Below are positions 12,017 to 51,794 of a DNA stretch of 64,000 bases, one piece after another. The DNA lies in contig LBWX01000001.1 of assembly GCA_000995065.1 (NCBI GenBank), positions 159,563 through 223,562 of the forward strand. Direction: 5' to 3'. The position numbers and the translations under genes are program-made. Source of the stretch: a candidate division CPR2 bacterium GW2011_GWC2_39_35. Its GTDB lineage: Bacteria; Patescibacteriota; CPR2. Position 1 is the first letter of the stretch; the number at the start of each line of letters is the position of its first letter. The notes under the pieces were generated by a model, which saw only the letters and a list, made by a program, of their open reading frames with translations, ran no database searches and had not been told where the DNA came from.

Positions 12017-12688
12017 ATGAATACAAATCCATATGCAAAAAGAATATTAATTTTCGGAGACTCAAATGTCTGGGGCGATATTCCGCTTCAAGTCGGAACT
12101 AGGCTACCTGCCAATGTTCGCTGGACAGGGGTTTTACAGAATATGCTTGGAAATGATTATGAAGTCATTGAAGAAGGTTTAATAGGCCGAACAACAAATG
12201 TTGATGATCCATTTCCAGGTTTTGAAGACAAAAACGGAAAAGATTATCTTTTTCCTTGTTTAAGGTCTCAAATTCCGCTTGATTATGTTATTTTACTTTT
12301 AGGAAGTAATGATTTTAAGAAAGTTTTTAACCGAACAGCAAAAGATGTTGCTAAAGGTATTGATGAGCTCTTAACGCTTACAGAAAAATACGCTGAAAGA
12401 GACGGGGTTAAAGCAAAAATTCTTTTAATATCTCCTACCTATATCAAACCGAAAATCGAAGAAGTAAAACCTCATTTTTCAGGCTCTCCTGAAAAATCAC
12501 TTGAGTTGGGAAAAGAATTAGAACAAGTAGCCAAAAAACATCAATGCGGATTTATTAACTTGGCAGAATTTATTGAACCAAGTGATCTTGATAGTATTCA
12601 TTTGGAACCTGAATCACATAAAATAGTGGCCCAAAAGGTTTTTGAATTTTTAAAGAAGTCGAGGAATAAGCATGAAGCTAAAAGATAA
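12017..12688 (+). CDS. SGNH/GDSL-family hydrolase
   Basis: Block I GDS motif (IFGDSNVWG) and LLGSND block. Confidence 0.65.
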   Translation: MNTNPYAKRILIFGDSNVWGDIPLQVGTRLPANVRWTGVLQNMLGNDYEVIEEGLIGRTTNVDDPFPGFEDKNGKDYLFPCLRSQIPLDYVILLLGSNDFKKVFNRTAKDVAKGIDELLTLTEKYAERDGVKAKILLISPTYIKPKIEEVKPHFSGSPEKSLELGKELEQVAKKHQCGFINLAEFIEPSDLDSIHLEPESHKIVAQKVFEFLKKSRNKHEAKR

Positions 12689-35373: not shown

Positions 35374-37185
35374 ATGAATTTAAGAAACGTTGCCATTATT
35401 GCTCACGTAGACCACGGAAAAACCACTCTAGTCGATGGTTTACTCAAACAATCTAAAACTTTTAGAGAAAACGAGGCGGCTTTTAGTCAGACTCTTATTA
35501 TGGACTCCAACGATCAGGAGCGCGAAAGAGGCATTACTATTTTATCCAAAAATACAGCCGTTAAATATGGGGAAACCAAAATTAATATTATTGACACCCC
35601 GGGACACGCCGATTTTGGCGGAGAAGTAGAAAGAATTTTAAATATGGCAGACGGCGCCATCCTCGTAGTTGATGCCCAGGAAGGCCCAATGCCGCAAACC
35701 AAATTTGTATTGAAAAAAGCCTTAGAGATTGGCCTAAAGCCGATTGTAGTCATAAATAAAATTGATAAGCCTAATTCTAGAATTGATGAAGTAATTTCTA
35801 AGACTAGCGATTTGTTTTTAGACTTAGCTACCAATACCGACCAGTTAGACTTTCCTGTTTATTATGCCGTTGGACGTGATGGAAAAGCCTGGAATGAAAT
35901 GCCGGAAAATTCTGACGAAATAGCCGACCTTACACCTGTTTTTGATGCTATTTTAAATCATGTTCCGGCTCCGGACGTAGCGCATGACGAACCTTTTCAG
36001 ATGCTTGTTACCTCGCTAGACCGAGACAGTTTTCAGGGCAAACACGTAATTGGCCGCATTAAGCGCGGCTTCATTAAGCCTGGAACCACCATCACCTTGA
36101 TTAAAAAAGATGGTACTACCGAGCAATCTAGAATCGATAAGGTTTACGTTTCTCAAGGATTAAAAAAGATCGAAATCGAAGAGGCTAACGCCGGAGAGAT
36201 TGTATCTCTAACCGGTGTAAGAAACGCAAGCATCGGCGATACTATAGCCGATAGCCAGAACCCGGAAGCCTTGCCAACCATCGAAATCGAAGAACCTACC
36301 TTAAAAATGTCTGTTGGCGCAAATACATCTCCGTTTGCCGGCAAAGAAGGTCAATTTGTAACCAGCCGTCAGATCTTGGAAAGAATCAATAAAGAGCTAG
36401 AAACCAATGTTTCTCTAAAAATGGAGATGGGAGGAGAGGGGAACTATATTCTTTCCGGACGTGGCGAGCTTCATTTGTCGGTATTCATCGAAAACTTGAG
36501 ACGCGAAGGTTTTGAGCTTCAGGTTGGAAAACCTCAGGTAATTACTAAGATTGTTAGTGGCAAGGAGAATGAACCAATAGAGGAATTAACGATAGATGTT
36601 GCTACCGAGCATGTCGGAGCGGTAACCTCAGAAGTTGGCCGTCGTAAAGGCAACTTGCTAGCCCAAGAAGAGAATGCCGATAGCACTACAAGGCTTATGT
36701 TTGAAATCTCAACTAGAGGTTTGTTAGGCCTTAGAAACCAGCTTTTAACTTTGTCGCGCGGCACAGCCATCATGAACTCTCTATTTCTAAGATTCCAGCC
36801 GGTTGGCGCACCTATTCCACGTCTCCGAAATGGCGCCCTAATTGCCAGCGAGCCGGGCAAAGCCGTGGCTTATGGTCTTAATAACGCCCAAGCGAGAGGA
36901 ACAGTCTTTATTAATCCCCAGACACAAGTGTACGAGGGAATGATTGTAGGCCTAAATGCCCGTGAAGGCGACCTAGAAATAAATGTAACTAAAGAAAAGA
37001 AGCTTACCAATGTCAGGGCTTCTAGTTCCGATGAGGCCATTGCCCTAACTCCGCCAACAGTTTTATCCCTAGAACAGTCCTTGGACTTCTTGGAAGATGA
37101 CGAACTCTTAGAAGTAACTCCGAAATACTTAAGACTCAGAAAGAGGCTCTTAAATGCAACAGCGAGATCTAGAGCAAGGAAATAA
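35374..37185 (+). CDS. typA: translational GTPase TypA/BipA
   Basis: AIIAHVDHGKTTL G1 motif, DTPGHADF and NKIDK motifs, BipA-type C-terminal domains. ATG at 35374 preferred over the track start at 35329. Confidence 0.85.
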   Translation: MNLRNVAIIAHVDHGKTTLVDGLLKQSKTFRENEAAFSQTLIMDSNDQERERGITILSKNTAVKYGETKINIIDTPGHADFGGEVERILNMADGAILVVDAQEGPMPQTKFVLKKALEIGLKPIVVINKIDKPNSRIDEVISKTSDLFLDLATNTDQLDFPVYYAVGRDGKAWNEMPENSDEIADLTPVFDAILNHVPAPDVAHDEPFQMLVTSLDRDSFQGKHVIGRIKRGFIKPGTTITLIKKDGTTEQSRIDKVYVSQGLKKIEIEEANAGEIVSLTGVRNASIGDTIADSQNPEALPTIEIEEPTLKMSVGANTSPFAGKEGQFVTSRQILERINKELETNVSLKMEMGGEGNYILSGRGELHLSVFIENLRREGFELQVGKPQVITKIVSGKENEPIEELTIDVATEHVGAVTSEVGRRKGNLLAQEENADSTTRLMFEISTRGLLGLRNQLLTLSRGTAIMNSLFLRFQPVGAPIPRLRNGALIASEPGKAVAYGLNNAQARGTVFINPQTQVYEGMIVGLNAREGDLEINVTKEKKLTNVRASSSDEAIALTPPTVLSLEQSLDFLEDDELLEVTPKYLRLRKRLLNATARSRARK

Positions 37186-37307
37186 ATAGGCGAATAGGTT
37201 AATTGGTTGATGGGCTAATAGGGAAATAAGATGTCTTGTTGTTTGAGCGAAGAGCTACCTTGACCAGAATTAAGAGTCAAGAATTATGAATAGAGAAAAG
37301 ACGAAAG

Positions 37308-37331
37308 AGGCCCCTTAAACCGGGGCTTTTT
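37308..37331 (+). terminator. rho-independent terminator AGGCCCC-ttaaac-CGGGGCTTTTT
   Basis: Direct reading downstream of typA. Confidence 0.6.
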
Positions 37332-37665
37332 AATGCAAAAATCCCCTAGGCCAACCCAGGTCTTCTCGGCAGGAAAATATCAAGAAAAATGTCATTCCCG
37401 ACTAGACCATTAAAAAATATAATCCGTTGATCAGGAATCTAGAACTTTTTATTGAATTGTTCTATTTAGGAAAAGGGCGCACAGAGCTTTTGAAATTACT
37501 TAGGATCAGTTATAACCTTCGAGCACCTTTTCCGGTTGTGTGTTTGTTCTCTTTTTGCGATGTGCTACTTTCACAGGACGGTATTCCACCAGCGACTCCA
37601 CGAAAACTGGCGCCTTCGTTTCTTTGTCTCCCGTCTATCCTTTACTTATGAAAGCTACTTCTCCA

Positions 37666-37794
37666 GCCAGCAGGTAGGACTTGAACCTAACCATTGGTCC
37701 CTTAGTTATAGATTTATCAATTGAGGCATTTAACTAAGCAACTGTTTTATCTGTGCGCTGCTGGTATTATAACAATAAATTCCATATTTGGCAA
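37666..37794 (-). ncRNA. candidate small RNA with tRNA-like 3' module (T-arm GGUUCAAGUCC, 7-bp terminal helix CCAGCAG/CUGCUGG) driven by a TTGCCA-17 bp-TATAAT promoter (37766-37794)
   Basis: Manual reverse-complement reading. Does not fold into a canonical cloverleaf: ~99 nt, internal 8-bp hairpin CUUAGUUA/UAACUAAG, and no GG D-loop. Confidence 0.3.
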
Positions 37795-37873
37795 AGGAGA
37801 ATTAAGATAACTTCTCCATAAAATCGAAGAATAATATTGAGTGCTTGATGCGTTAAATATGTAAGTCGCGAAT

Positions 37874-39226
37874 TTACTTCACAAAAGTTAGAGCGACGCC
37901 GCGATTGTTGGCGCGGCCGGTTCGGCCAATTCTATGAATATAGTCGTCAAAGCTTTCGGGGAGATCGTAATTAATAACGTGGGTCACGCCATCAATGTCT
38001 AAGCCTCTAGCGGCTACGTCAGTAGCCACCAAAATATTTAGTTCATCTTGCTTAAACGACCTCAAGGCTCTTTCTCTTTTGTTTTGAGGCTTGTCGCCAT
38101 GAATAGAAGTTGATTTAAACCCTCTAACGGCTAGTTCTCTGGATAACTCCTCAACACCTCTTTTGGTTTTGCCAAAGATCAACACTTTCTCGAATTCTTC
38201 CTGAATCAGAAGTTCATGTAAAACTTCAATTTTCTGCTGGTCCCTTGGTACTTTTACGATATCTTGTTCGACATTATCGGATGTTTGAGACGCCTTAACA
38301 GAAACCGTAATCGGATTTGTAAGGAACGTCTGGATAAGACTGTTTATTCTTGGCGAAATTGTAGCGGAAAAAAACAAGGATTGTCTTTTTTGAGGTAGGT
38401 AAGACATAATTTTCTGAATATCCTCGATAAAACCCATATCTACCATTCTATCTACCTCGTCCAAAACAATATTCTGGAAGCCAGGTAGTCTTAATTTGCC
38501 TCTCTTTATAAGGTCGTTGATTCTGCCCGGCGTTCCAATAACAAATTGGGGTTGTCTTTGGAGGTTAGAGATCTGCCTTCCGATATTAGCACCACCAATA
38601 ACCTGAACCGAAAAGAGTCTCATTCCTCTGGAAAATTCTCTAAACTCGGCGTCAATCTGACTGGCAAGCTCTCTGGTTGGAGTAACAATAAGAACTCTCT
38701 GACTCTTGTCTTTAAAAATCTTATCAATAAGAGGAACTATGAAAGCTCCTGTCTTACCGGTACCGGTACTAGCAATACCAATAACATCTCTACCTTCTAA
38801 AAGATGGGGGATGGATTGATCCTGAATAGGGGTCGGGGTTGTATAATTTTTTTGTTCAATATTTTTCTTTAGCTCTGCCGAGATATCAAAATCAGCAAAC
38901 CGATGTTCTGAAACATATTCTTCGGACTCGCTCACGGGAGCCGCCTTTTTGATATACCTAGAGTAATCTTCGGCCTGCCTAAAATTACCTCTTCGAGGCT
39001 TACTAGACCAATTTTTTCTATAACCGGAACTAGTAAAAGAACTTTGGCTTCTGCTAGCACTTCCATAAGGCACGAAATTACCTCGTGATCCCTGAAAAGT
39101 ACTAGTTTGACCTCCGCTATTATTAGAATTACTTGAAGCAAAATTATATTTGCTTTTTGGTTTAGACGAGTTGAAGCCGCCTTTACCTCTGCCTTTTGAA
39201 ACAGAATTAAAAGATTTTTGATACAT
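37874..39226 (-). CDS. DEAD-box ATP-dependent RNA helicase (DEVD variant) with RG/S-rich N-terminal tail
   Basis: ASTGTGKT motif I, PTRELA, LDEVDRM (motif II), SAT, VATDVAARGLD and HRIGRTGR motifs. Confidence 0.85.
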   Translation of the reverse strand: MYQKSFNSVSKGRGKGGFNSSKPKSKYNFASSNSNNSGGQTSTFQGSRGNFVPYGSASRSQSSFTSSGYRKNWSSKPRRGNFRQAEDYSRYIKKAAPVSESEEYVSEHRFADFDISAELKKNIEQKNYTTPTPIQDQSIPHLLEGRDVIGIASTGTGKTGAFIVPLIDKIFKDKSQRVLIVTPTRELASQIDAEFREFSRGMRLFSVQVIGGANIGRQISNLQRQPQFVIGTPGRINDLIKRGKLRLPGFQNIVLDEVDRMVDMGFIEDIQKIMSYLPQKRQSLFFSATISPRINSLIQTFLTNPITVSVKASQTSDNVEQDIVKVPRDQQKIEVLHELLIQEEFEKVLIFGKTKRGVEELSRELAVRGFKSTSIHGDKPQNKRERALRSFKQDELNILVATDVAARGLDIDGVTHVINYDLPESFDDYIHRIGRTGRANNRGVALTFVK

Positions 39227-42273: not shown

Positions 42274-42648
42274 TACTCCCAACCCGTTATAATAGAGTTG
42301 TTATCTAGGATCATTTATGAAGAAAGCGCCGCTTTTGTTTTTTTCCAAAACCGACTGGACGCTTATTGTCTTAAGCTTTGCGGTTTCCCTATATTTGTAT
42401 CCTTCGCTTTCAGACATTGGAATATAGAAAGCGAAACCGACGCTTGGGGCCCTAAACTTTATTCTTTAATCTCAATGCCAATTATTGCCACCGTTATTTT
42501 GACTCTGATAGCATATTTACCCAAGCCAAACCCTTTTTATTCTTATCAAGTTTGGAAAAAGGATAAGAAAAAATAAGCATGTAAATAACATCGGCACCAT
42601 TATTATCATATTTGGCATACTGATTAGGATAATATATAATACTATTCA

Positions 42649-43584
42649 ATGGTAACAGAGGACATTATGAATACAGTAATCAAAGTAGAAAAGCTAGTTA
42701 AAGAGTACAAAGGCCTAACTGCAGTAAAGGGGATTTCTTTTGAGGTTAAAAAGGGCGAAATCTTTGGCTTGCTTGGAGAAAATGGCGCCGGCAAGACCAC
42801 CACTTTGGAAATGATAGAGGGCCTTAGAAAACCTACCTCCGGGGAAATCTCGGTTTTGGGACATAACGTTAGAAATGAGATTTCTGAGATTAAAGAGAGA
42901 ATTGGCGTCCAGCTTCAATCATCAGCTTATTACAACTATCTAACCTTAAAAGAGATTTTAAGCCTCTTTGGAAGTTTTTACACTGAAAGCCTAGACCCGG
43001 ATGATCTTTTAAAAATGGTAGATCTTGAGGAAAAAGCTGGAGCAACCGTAAACAACCTCTCCGGCGGCCAAAAACAAAGGTTTTCTATTGTTGCAAGCTT
43101 AGTGAATGACCCCGAAATTGTCTTCTTAGACGAGCCAACAACCGGCCTGGACCCCATGGCCAGAAGAAATCTTTGGGATATTATTACAAAGATTAAAGCC
43201 AAAGGAAAAACTATTATCCTAACTACTCATTACCTAGAAGAGGCCGAGATGCTTTGCGATAGAATTGCCATCATGGAAAAGGGTGAAATTTTGATGATGG
43301 GCAAAACGCACGAACTTATAGAGAGCACCAAAAATCCCTTCAAAACAACTTTTATCGCCACAAGCCTCTCAAAAGAAACTCTAAAAGAGCTGGAAGGGCT
43401 AGGAGAAGTTAATGAGCTCGCCGGGAAGTCGCACCACTTTGAGATGATGCTAAAGACTCAGGTCAACCTAAATAAAGCTATAAAGATCGTCCAGAAACTA
43501 GAACCCGAAAGTATAACAGTGGGGAGATCTACCTTAGAAGATTTGTTTATAGAATTAACCGGTAAAAGAATAGGTGGGGAATAA
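42649..43584 (+). CDS. ABC transporter ATP-binding protein
   Basis: Walker A GENGAGKTT, signature LSGGQKQR, Walker B FLDEPT. Confidence 0.85.
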   Translation: MVTEDIMNTVIKVEKLVKEYKGLTAVKGISFEVKKGEIFGLLGENGAGKTTTLEMIEGLRKPTSGEISVLGHNVRNEISEIKERIGVQLQSSAYYNYLTLKEILSLFGSFYTESLDPDDLLKMVDLEEKAGATVNNLSGGQKQRFSIVASLVNDPEIVFLDEPTTGLDPMARRNLWDIITKIKAKGKTIILTTHYLEEAEMLCDRIAIMEKGEILMMGKTHELIESTKNPFKTTFIATSLSKETLKELEGLGEVNELAGKSHHFEMMLKTQVNLNKAIKIVQKLEPESITVGRSTLEDLFIELTGKRIGGE

Positions 43585-51428: not shown

Positions 51429-51550
51429 CAGAGCAAAAAGGCTTGACAAGGAATTCAGGTTCGATAGAATTTTAAGCGTAAATGGCTTGACTTCATAAGA
51501 AGCAAGCGTTATGTTAATAAAAAATTTATCCCGAAAGGAGGTGAAGACAA

Positions 51551-51694
51551 ATGGCAACAGTAGGTTATTGCGTAAAGTGTAAAGCTAAGCAAGAAATGAA
51601 AGACGAAGAGAAGGTTACCCTAAAAAACGGTAAGCCTGCAACCAAGGGCACTTGTCCTGTTTGCGGCACCAAAATGTTTAAAATTGGTGGCTAG
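51551..51694 (+). CDS. small zinc-ribbon protein (47 aa; resembles DUF5679)
   Basis: SD AAAGGAGGTGA 7 nt upstream. CVKCKAK...CPVCGTKMFK. Not in the ORF track because it is under 60 aa. Confidence 0.5.
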   Translation: MATVGYCVKCKAKQEMKDEEKVTLKNGKPATKGTCPVCGTKMFKIGG

Positions 51695-51794
51695 TAGTTA
51701 AAAGTTTGAGGGGGATTTTAAATAGCCCCGAGCCCGCAGTCCCAAGGATCGTCCGAAGGATTCAGGTTCGGGACTATTTTTATCTCAGAAATTA

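Follow-up and report, generated by a model that had tools for sequence, protein, structure and literature searches.

In this article, I describe a candidate non-coding RNA gene in a 64,000-nucleotide (nt) stretch of the genome of candidate division CPR2 bacterium GW2011_GWC2_39_35 (contig LBWX01000001.1, positions 159,563 to 223,562; this whole stretch is called the window, and all coordinates are counted from its first letter). The gene lies on the minus strand of a 688-nt gap (37186-37873) that separates the convergent genes for BipA/TypA (35374-37185, plus strand) and a DEAD-box RNA helicase (37874-39226, minus strand), and its main component is a free-standing copy of the L1 stalk of 23S ribosomal RNA (rRNA), preceded by a hairpin that resembles the T-arm of a transfer RNA (tRNA). 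BipA and DEAD-box helicases are both ribosome-assembly factors. An initial annotation of the window had reported that the gap is free of credible open reading frames (ORFs), and this is borne out by the ORF lengths (at most 31 codons on the minus strand, and on the plus strand only a TTG-start ORF of 74 codons) and by Pfam, which matched none of the ten stop-to-stop fragments of the gap. A hidden small protein was considered and rejected, there being no candidate in the gap with both a convincing start and a ribosome-binding site. The same annotation called the RNA antisense, a word that has to be dropped, as the opposite strand carries neither an annotated nor a plausible gene and the RNA is thus antisense to nothing.

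In the ribosome, the L1 stalk is the binding site of the protein uL1 and touches the E-site tRNA at its elbow. Positions 2126-2215 of the Rfam model of bacterial large-subunit (LSU) rRNA (LSU_rRNA_bacteria, RF02541) are matched by 37655-37567 of the minus strand with 47.8 bits and an E value of 1.7e-13, and the alignment spans exactly helices 76 to 78 (H76-H78), stopping at the ends of H76. The copy begins 12 nt past the heptamer CUGCUGG that ends the T-arm hairpin, and hence outside the interval that the initial annotation had flagged. It keeps the invariant segments AGGAUAG, GGGAG, GGAG and UGGAAUACC of the stalk, while its H76 is a wholly different, AU-rich sequence that is still paired (GCUUUCAU/GUGAAAGU), and none of the module's 26 pairs is broken in the window. 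With R2, a covariance model built from isolated L1-stalk copies, the window scores 85.6 bits as against 90.2 bits for the stalk of Escherichia coli 23S rRNA. Because of the Rfam E value, and because the motif pattern of the stalk found no match at all in shuffled sequences, the copy cannot be a product of chance. Nor is it embedded in an LSU gene, the Rfam scan of the whole window at gathering thresholds having found no other rRNA. That scan also missed the copy itself, because 47.8 bits is under the gathering score of 50 for the LSU model; the match is reported only for queries of up to 501 nt and is lost with a 1001-nt query, the filters of Rfam being laxer for short queries. Isolated copies of rRNA domains are thus missed at Rfam default thresholds, and such copies may be systematically overlooked or dismissed as partial rRNA matches.

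Upstream of the stalk, the hairpin TTAGG/TTCAAGT/CCTAC (37690-37674) has four good pairs and a U.C mismatch, and its central GG-UUCAAGU-CC (37687-37677) has the T54 Psi55 C56 R57 A58 loop and the G53-C61 closing pair of a tRNA T-arm, so the canonical T-loop that had been noted there is real. The strand that follows, CTGCTGG (37673-37667), is a perfect 7-base-pair (bp) complement of CCAGCAG (37764-37758), exactly as first described. A T-arm with such a 7-bp closing helix turns up in about 0.04 of shuffled 64-kilobase (kb) windows, or at about 0.006-0.02 per T-arm, which is suggestive by itself but not decisive. More telling is a homologue. Metagenome contigs were scanned with a pattern specific to the H77 variant of the window, in which the T-arm was not included, and a single contig was returned (L099), which is Falkowbacteria-like by its L10 protein. 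Its order is promoter-like sites, a T-loop hairpin, about 17 nt, a complete L1 stalk, and a hairpin with a terminator, followed downstream by a promoter, the L10 leader and rplJ-rplL; the spacing from T-loop hairpin to stalk is thus about 17-19 nt in the window and in L099 alike. The L099 hairpin (T-loop UUCGAAU, stem UGCGG/CCGUA) folds at -17.7 kcal/mol with z = -3.5, and the frequency in shuffled windows puts a T-arm-like motif within 60 nt by chance at about 1e-3. Between the two sequences one T-stem pair is compensated, with A-U in the window and C-G at the corresponding place in L099, and nearly all of H78 is re-paired. Furthermore, in a 263-kb phage contig (L100) a tRNA-Ile ends 33 nt before an L1-stalk copy, and a U-run comes after the H76 of this copy. 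Because there is a compensated T-arm in L099 and a genuine tRNA-Ile at that place in L100, the T-arm of the window is probably real and tRNA-derived. In L099, the helix below the T-stem is closed locally by adjacent sequence, with no distal 5' strand and no counterpart of the window's 8-bp hairpin, and a weaker local pairing below the T-stem can be drawn for the window by analogy. The predicted conserved unit is consequently a T-loop-capped helix followed by an L1 stalk, and not a three-way tRNA-like fold.

It could be objected that the resemblance to tRNA is pure chance, and that it merely stands beside the relic promoter of a lost gene. The two loci with the closest helicase relatives (L085 and L086) have, where the window has the RNA gene, a gene for a 406-residue HI0933-like flavin adenine dinucleotide (FAD) flavoprotein, between the helicase and BipA genes (L085:2083-3303, L086:4408-5628), and in L085 a terminator and a weak promoter of its own precede that gene. 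The frequency of about 4% in shuffled windows and the silence of the tRNA programs, described below, would also suit this explanation. It nevertheless seems to me very improbable, given that the independent homologue L099 has a T-arm at the same place, that L100 has a real tRNA there, that no flavoprotein remnant is detectable in the gap by tblastn or Pfam, and that the L1-stalk copy beside it is not accidental.

The features of the locus are collected in Table 1. The initial annotation had placed a promoter, TTGCCA and TATAAT 17 bp apart, 1 nt ahead of CCAGCAG on the minus strand, and this promoter is indeed present and exceeds chance: a match of 11 of 12 positions plus the TG of an extended -10 box is found in only 0.13% of dinucleotide shuffles of the gap (chance 0.0013). 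In the window as a whole, there are nine matches of at least 11 of 12 positions as against 2.0 expected (a 4.5-fold enrichment), nearly all of them sit just upstream of genes, tRNA-Glu included, and the one discussed here is among the two strongest. A side observation is a TTGGCA-17-TATAAT promoter on the plus strand (42612-42649), with 8 nt between its end and the ATG of the ORF at 42649-43584, which suggests that the messenger RNA (mRNA) of this ORF is leaderless. With the promoter statistics and an ORF-free unit behind it, the proposal of a promoter-driven small RNA stands, and there is very probably a non-coding RNA gene at this locus.

Table 1. Features of the BipA-helicase gap, in order of window position.
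Feature	Position	Strand	Remarks
Direct repeat AGAATTAAGA, copy 1	37266-37275		10-nt perfect repeat bracketing the cassette
BipA terminator hairpin GCCCC-ttaaacc-GGGGC, then TTTTT	37310-37331	+	GC-rich; reads as a terminator on the minus strand too
Terminator-like hairpin CCUGGGUUGGCCUAGG, then U-run	37336-37360	-	predicted 3' end of the non-coding RNA; adjoins the BipA terminator
3' part of the predicted transcript	37361-37566	-	A-rich; no family match, no conserved counterpart
Free-standing 23S rRNA helices 76-77-78 (L1 stalk)	37567-37655	-	own AU-rich closing helix; Rfam and model R2
T-arm hairpin UUAGG/CCUAC, T-loop UUCAAGU, 3' strand CUGCUGG, 5' flank GGACCAAUGG	37667-37700	-	canonical T-loop
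8-bp hairpin CUUAGUUA/UAACUAAG, 22-nt loop	37701-37738	-	absent from L099; lineage-specific
5' heptamer CCAGCAG (distal acceptor-like strand)	37758-37764	-	2-8 nt past the -10 box; perfect complement of 37673-37667
Sigma-70-type promoter: -35 TTGCCA (37794-37789), 17-nt spacer, extended -10 TGtTATAAT (37774-37766)	37766-37794	-	11 of 12 positions plus TG
Direct repeat AGAATTAAGA, copy 2	37798-37807		10-nt perfect repeat bracketing the cassette

The position of this promoter bears on the acceptor-like helix. Bacterial RNA polymerase normally starts some 5-9 nt past the -10 box, which here would put the start near A37759, and because the -10 box ends only 1 nt before the CCAGCAG heptamer, a promoter-initiated RNA would probably be without most of that strand. 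The promoter and the acceptor helix cannot both serve within one transcript. What survives of the proposed acceptor-like helix is thus the perfect complementarity of the two heptamers, while the helix itself is doubtful: its 5' strand overlaps the start region and has no counterpart in L099. The perfect 8-bp hairpin with a 22-nt loop, for its part, is present as first reported (arms CTTAGTTA at 37738-37731 and TAACTAAG at 37708-37701 of the minus strand), though not in the homologue. Toward the 3' end, the segment 37361-37566 gave no Rfam match, no unusual folding stability and no homology in relatives. Taken together, I am confident of the anatomy of the RNA gene: a sigma-70-type promoter would drive an RNA of about 420 nt across 37336-37794 of the minus strand, consisting in order of a variable 5' part, a T-loop-capped hairpin that would be tRNA-derived, about 12 nt, a self-closing L1 stalk, and a final hairpin with its U-run.

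The initial annotation had also left room for an intron-containing or otherwise aberrant tRNA, and for a tRNA-derived regulatory RNA, while stating that there is no canonical cloverleaf. ARAGORN, over the whole window, called only tRNA-Gln and tRNA-Glu, and on 37300-37900 made no call in its default, intron, mitochondrial-default or transfer-messenger RNA (tmRNA) modes, or at a threshold of 90% with introns. At thresholds of 70-80%, there are calls that share the 3' end of the element but start at 37744 and not at 37764, the one at 80% being accompanied by an obviously spurious intron-containing "tRNA-His"; a relaxed mitochondrial mode gave five calls, one of which overlaps the element in part. 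Similarly, Rfam matched the element to neither a tRNA nor a tmRNA, and this was so even when a 231-nt query was run at E<=10, a setting that lists matches of 14 bits; the gathering score of the tRNA family (RF00005) is 29. A tRNA and a tmRNA are ruled out by these results; the absence of a cloverleaf is confirmed, the aberrant tRNA falls away for want of any credible call, and of the tRNA-derived regulatory RNA there remains a non-coding RNA with a tRNA-derived T-arm, found at the same place in L099. With tRNAs and the tRNA-like domain of tmRNA the element has in common the T-loop and the G53-C61 closing pair, and also the acceptor/T layout in which a 7-nt 3' strand comes straight after the T-stem and has a perfect distal complement. 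Unlike a tRNA, it is without U8, G18G19, D-arm and D-stem, and anticodon arm, and it ends in ...CUGCUGG-C-UGG with no encoded CCA, which both tRNA-Gln and tRNA-Glu of the window do encode. Unlike a tmRNA, it has A3-U70 and not G3-U70 and possesses no tag reading frame. Also put forward had been a mobile-element attachment mimic, and in the form of a phage attachment-site remnant, that is a tRNA 3' half, this was rejected: the 21-mer GGTTCAAGTCCTACCTGCTGG, composed of the T-loop and the 3' strand, has no match in viral or metagenome contigs and is unlike the tRNAs of the window and 17 tRNAs from relatives. A repeat search found no other copies of the element in the window.

The stalk module is not confined to bacteria. 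A scan of the viral contigs of IMG/VR with the invariant pattern of the L1 stalk returned 16 contigs, four of which hold genuine or larger 23S rRNA (one full-length, three cut at contig ends), whereas about ten distinct contigs of 43-263 kb hold only the L1-stalk segment, approximately positions 2105-2180 of E. coli 23S rRNA; these are among the contigs that I have numbered L088-L096, L100, L113 and L114. In a comparison of ten sequences, pairing amounts to 97.5-100% in H77, the inner helix and H78, and 10 of the 16 pairs of these helices show double changes; in controls with slid partners, it falls to about 40%. In the minimum free energy (MFE) fold, the module is closed by a terminal helix of unrelated sequence in eight of nine copies, L093 being the exception. 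In unconstrained columns, the copies are about 40-65% identical pairwise (apart from one near-identical phage pair at 95%), and therefore they are not recent copies of each other. Among the cultured phages of INPHARED, blastn gave no match to the window query and only rRNA-type records to the phage-copy query. I provisionally define a family of free-standing L1-stalk RNAs, with a complete and self-closed H76-H78 outside an rRNA gene and often near a tRNA or T-arm, into which the window, L099 and about ten phage contigs fit; no prior description of such RNAs was found in the full-text literature searched, whose coverage is incomplete, so that novelty is not proven.

Six of the ten phage contigs have same-strand tRNA genes within 33-1626 nt of the isolated stalk. 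One phage contig merits a remark of its own: at L089:880-1010, and with the same sequence in L092, there is a T-arm (ACCGG-TTCAAAT-CCGGT) with CTGGCTC behind it, and some 30 nt farther on come GAGCCGG and a canonical D-arm, such that the 3' half precedes the 5' half as in the gene of a circularly permuted tRNA or a two-piece tmRNA. This piece lies about 190 nt downstream of the L1-stalk copy of that phage and receives no ARAGORN call.

The company of tRNA genes raises the question of whether the RNA would bind tRNA elbows, in place of uL1 or in addition to it, as a free "E-site" module that captures, chaperones or senses tRNAs and for which the T-loop hairpin might be a pseudo-substrate. Docking of tRNA elbows by way of T-loop motifs is common to the L1 stalk, RNase P and T-box stem I, the isolated stalks of phages stand in or beside same-strand tRNA arrays, and in both CPR (candidate phyla radiation) cases, the window and L099, the T-loop hairpin is tethered 17-19 nt upstream. 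Against it, the purine pair that stacks on tRNA elbows (which I take to be G2112-A2169 of E. coli) is not conserved among the copies, the T-hairpins are without a D-loop partner and so would form no true elbow, and the adjacency of tRNA genes may merely reflect co-transcription and shared processing. As the leading account of what the RNA does, elbow binding thus seems rather unlikely to me.

Now considering the distribution, the element is sporadic. In 80 BipA loci from GTDB species representatives, whose BipA shares at most 83% protein identity with that of the window, neither nucleotide nor covariance-model searches matched the gap or the tRNA-like element, and the other helicase loci that were examined do not have the element either. 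The helicase has an identical protein in GW2011_GWC1_41_48 and then relatives at 75% and 68%, with none between 100% and 75%, and contigs of the same species are identical across the element (the locus match being contig DPXD01000002.1 of GCA_003526405.1), leaving no polymorphism to read. Similarly, seven loci with an L10 that shares 72-95% identity with that of L099 have no such element upstream of rplJ; two more related loci (L10 96%) have too little upstream sequence to judge. The stretch 37336-37794 looks like an inserted cassette. It is bracketed by the 10-nt repeat AGAATTAAGA, which is not significant alone, and the cassette of L099 is bracketed by a 36-nt, 86%-identical repeat (12207-12242 and 12517-12552) that duplicates the rplJ promoter; such repeats suggest insertion or duplication events. 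Two side observations concern the same place. In four loci from Saccharibacteria, Berkelbacteria and WWE3 (L016, L017, L028 and L030), a tRNA-His(GTG) lies downstream of BipA on the opposite strand, in the same relative position as the cassette and with a dissimilar sequence. Also, an echo of the last codons of BipA (GAAAGAGGCTCTTAAATGCAA, 37139-37159) stands to either side of the BipA terminator hairpin (37303-37338), either by chance or perhaps because the end of the gene was duplicated and the hairpin inserted into it.

Sporadic distribution in both CPR lineages and flanking repeats are also what would be expected of non-functional debris, a scrap of mobile or phage DNA with a decayed tRNA and a captured 23S fragment, inserted at the place of the flavoprotein gene of sister lineages and with a promoter that would be a relic or incidental. 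Neither a D part nor an anticodon part can be recognised in the tRNA-like piece, folding stability is ordinary, and the identity of same-species contigs means that selection cannot be read from polymorphism. However, the rRNA piece is always an exact and complete H76-H78 with its own closing helix and never ragged, the helices of the module are rich in compensatory changes, the T-arms of the window and L099 show compensated pairing, and one of the two strongest promoter matches stands directly upstream with terminators downstream. CPR genomes are compact, and yet nowhere in the 64 kb is there a longer stretch devoid of a credible gene, an 821-nt gap before tRNA-Glu being set aside because it holds a small ORF. 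That ORF (51553-51696, plus strand), in contrast to the ORF-free gap, has 47 codons, two CxxC pairs of a zinc-ribbon-like kind and a strong AAAGGAGG ribosome-binding site, behind a promoter at 51443-51470. I consider debris an unlikely explanation, although a serious one, and lean toward the element being functional.

What then would the RNA do? Because the copy keeps the invariant core recognized by uL1, I propose uL1 as its partner. The retained GGGAG...GGAG...AUACC would be the recognition site of uL1 as it occurs in ribosomes and in autoregulatory mRNA sites, and the RNA would most likely act in trans as a uL1-binding decoy or buffer, possibly binding tRNA elbows too. It is known that free uL1 represses the operon that encodes it through binding to an mRNA site that mimics the one on rRNA (PMC13157829). 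A cis-acting leader for rplKA was rejected for the window, which contains no L1 or L11 gene; the ribosome-assembly neighbours (BipA and the helicase here, rplJL in L099) may be relevant to the element. The T-arm helix would be a relic of an upstream tRNA, kept, I speculate, as a processing or stabilising handle for RNase P, RNase Z or T-loop enzymes or, alternatively and equally speculatively, as an internal partner that docks on the head of the L1 stalk in the manner of an E-site tRNA. That uL1 binding is the main activity of the RNA can be suggested only tentatively and may well prove wrong. The statement as a whole, namely an independently transcribed, lineage-specific non-coding RNA cassette that combines a T-arm handle with a free L1 stalk and is a likely binder of uL1 or tRNA elbows, I would place a little short of an even chance.

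Several observations weigh against this proposal. The T-stem of the window, with its mismatch, is weak, and the local hairpin is not part of the MFE structure; the folding energies of the whole transcript and of the element are ordinary (z -0.6 to -1.1 against shuffles), on which account a stable structured RNA on thermodynamic grounds was rejected. Neither uL1 nor uL11 was found in the 64-kb window by tblastn with the E. coli L1 and L11 queries, and the tRNA-stacking purine pair varies by alignment reading, being A/G, G/C and G/G in the window, L099 and L089 respectively. There are only two bacterial examples, which are about 55% identical in unconstrained columns, and one run of the Rfam LSU model did not report the copy of L099, probably on account of its filters. 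It could be that a highly conserved stretch of rRNA was captured independently in each case and that the copies have no function. Furthermore, uL1 may not always be available, as it is reported to be absent from a subgroup of Parcubacteria (bioRxiv 10.1101/2022.01.07.475337). The same authors report that in Falkowbacteria, as in several other CPR groups, 23S rRNA has lost its helix 78 by deletion, and that some CPR ribosomes have an incomplete L1 stalk or none (bioRxiv 10.1101/2022.01.07.475337). This makes a stalk outside the ribosome intriguing in such organisms.

It is tempting to read these deletions, together with the Falkowbacteria-like L10 of L099, as a sign that the RNA is a trans-encoded ribosomal part that supplies an L1 stalk to ribosomes whose own 23S stalk is truncated. 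I find this hardly credible: H76 is closed within the element and leaves nothing to pair with 23S rRNA, relatives of L099 with 94-96% L10 identity do not have the element at this locus, and phages carry it too.

Returning to a free RNA that would bind uL1, the wider proposal, which I make tentatively and with more doubt than belief, is that free-standing L1-stalk RNAs form an undescribed trans-acting class derived from an rRNA domain, carried as small cassettes by large phages and by CPR bacteria, whose ribosomal L1 stalk or uL1 is often reduced, and binding uL1 and/or tRNA elbows outside the ribosome, with the T-loop hairpin as an E-site mimic or a processing handle. If such RNAs are expressed and bind uL1 or tRNA, a whole functional domain of rRNA would have been re-used as an independent small RNA, whereas the known ribosomal-protein regulators are short, cis-acting mRNA mimics and not complete, stand-alone domains. 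The location in phage tRNA arrays would then point to a new way for phages to interfere with or to supplement host translation, and the presence in CPR bacteria bears on how their reduced ribosomes work, some lineages being without helix 78 or uL1.

It is useful to set the element beside the systems that it most resembles. With the L1 stalk of 23S rRNA (H76-H78, RF02541 2126-2215), it has in common the secondary structure and the invariants AGGAUAG, GGGAG, GGAG and UGnAAUACC; unlike that stalk, it lies outside an rRNA gene with no flanking 23S sequence and has its own promoter and terminator, and its copies sit between protein genes in the window, beside rplJL in L099 and in tRNA arrays in phages. 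The autoregulatory sites of uL1, in the leader of the L11 operon in bacteria and in the L1 operon of Methanococcus, are likewise extraribosomal mimics of rRNA with the uL1 core, and the likely shared logic, by analogy, is competition with 23S rRNA for free uL1. Those sites are short and partial mimics of H77/H78 that act in cis in the 5' region of the mRNA they regulate, whereas the element has the whole stalk, including the tip of H78 and both T-loop motifs, is predicted to be transcribed on its own and has no rplK or rplA nearby; it may therefore be described as an rRNA mimic of a ribosomal-protein site that is complete, stand-alone and common to phages. Small RNAs from tRNA precursors, such as the 3'ETS-leuZ sponge of E. 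coli and the mascRNA handles of MALAT1, similarly have a tRNA or tRNA-like part directly upstream of a functional RNA, and by analogy tRNA-processing enzymes could set the ends of the RNA here as well, although in the two CPR cases the tRNA part has shrunk to a T-arm helix and the passenger is an rRNA domain. Finally, YrlA, the bacterial Y-RNA-like RNA, shows the same modular joining of a tRNA-like T-arm/acceptor part to a protein-binding module; the element differs from it in having no Rfam match to that RNA and in that its second module is an L1 stalk and not a Ro-binding stem.

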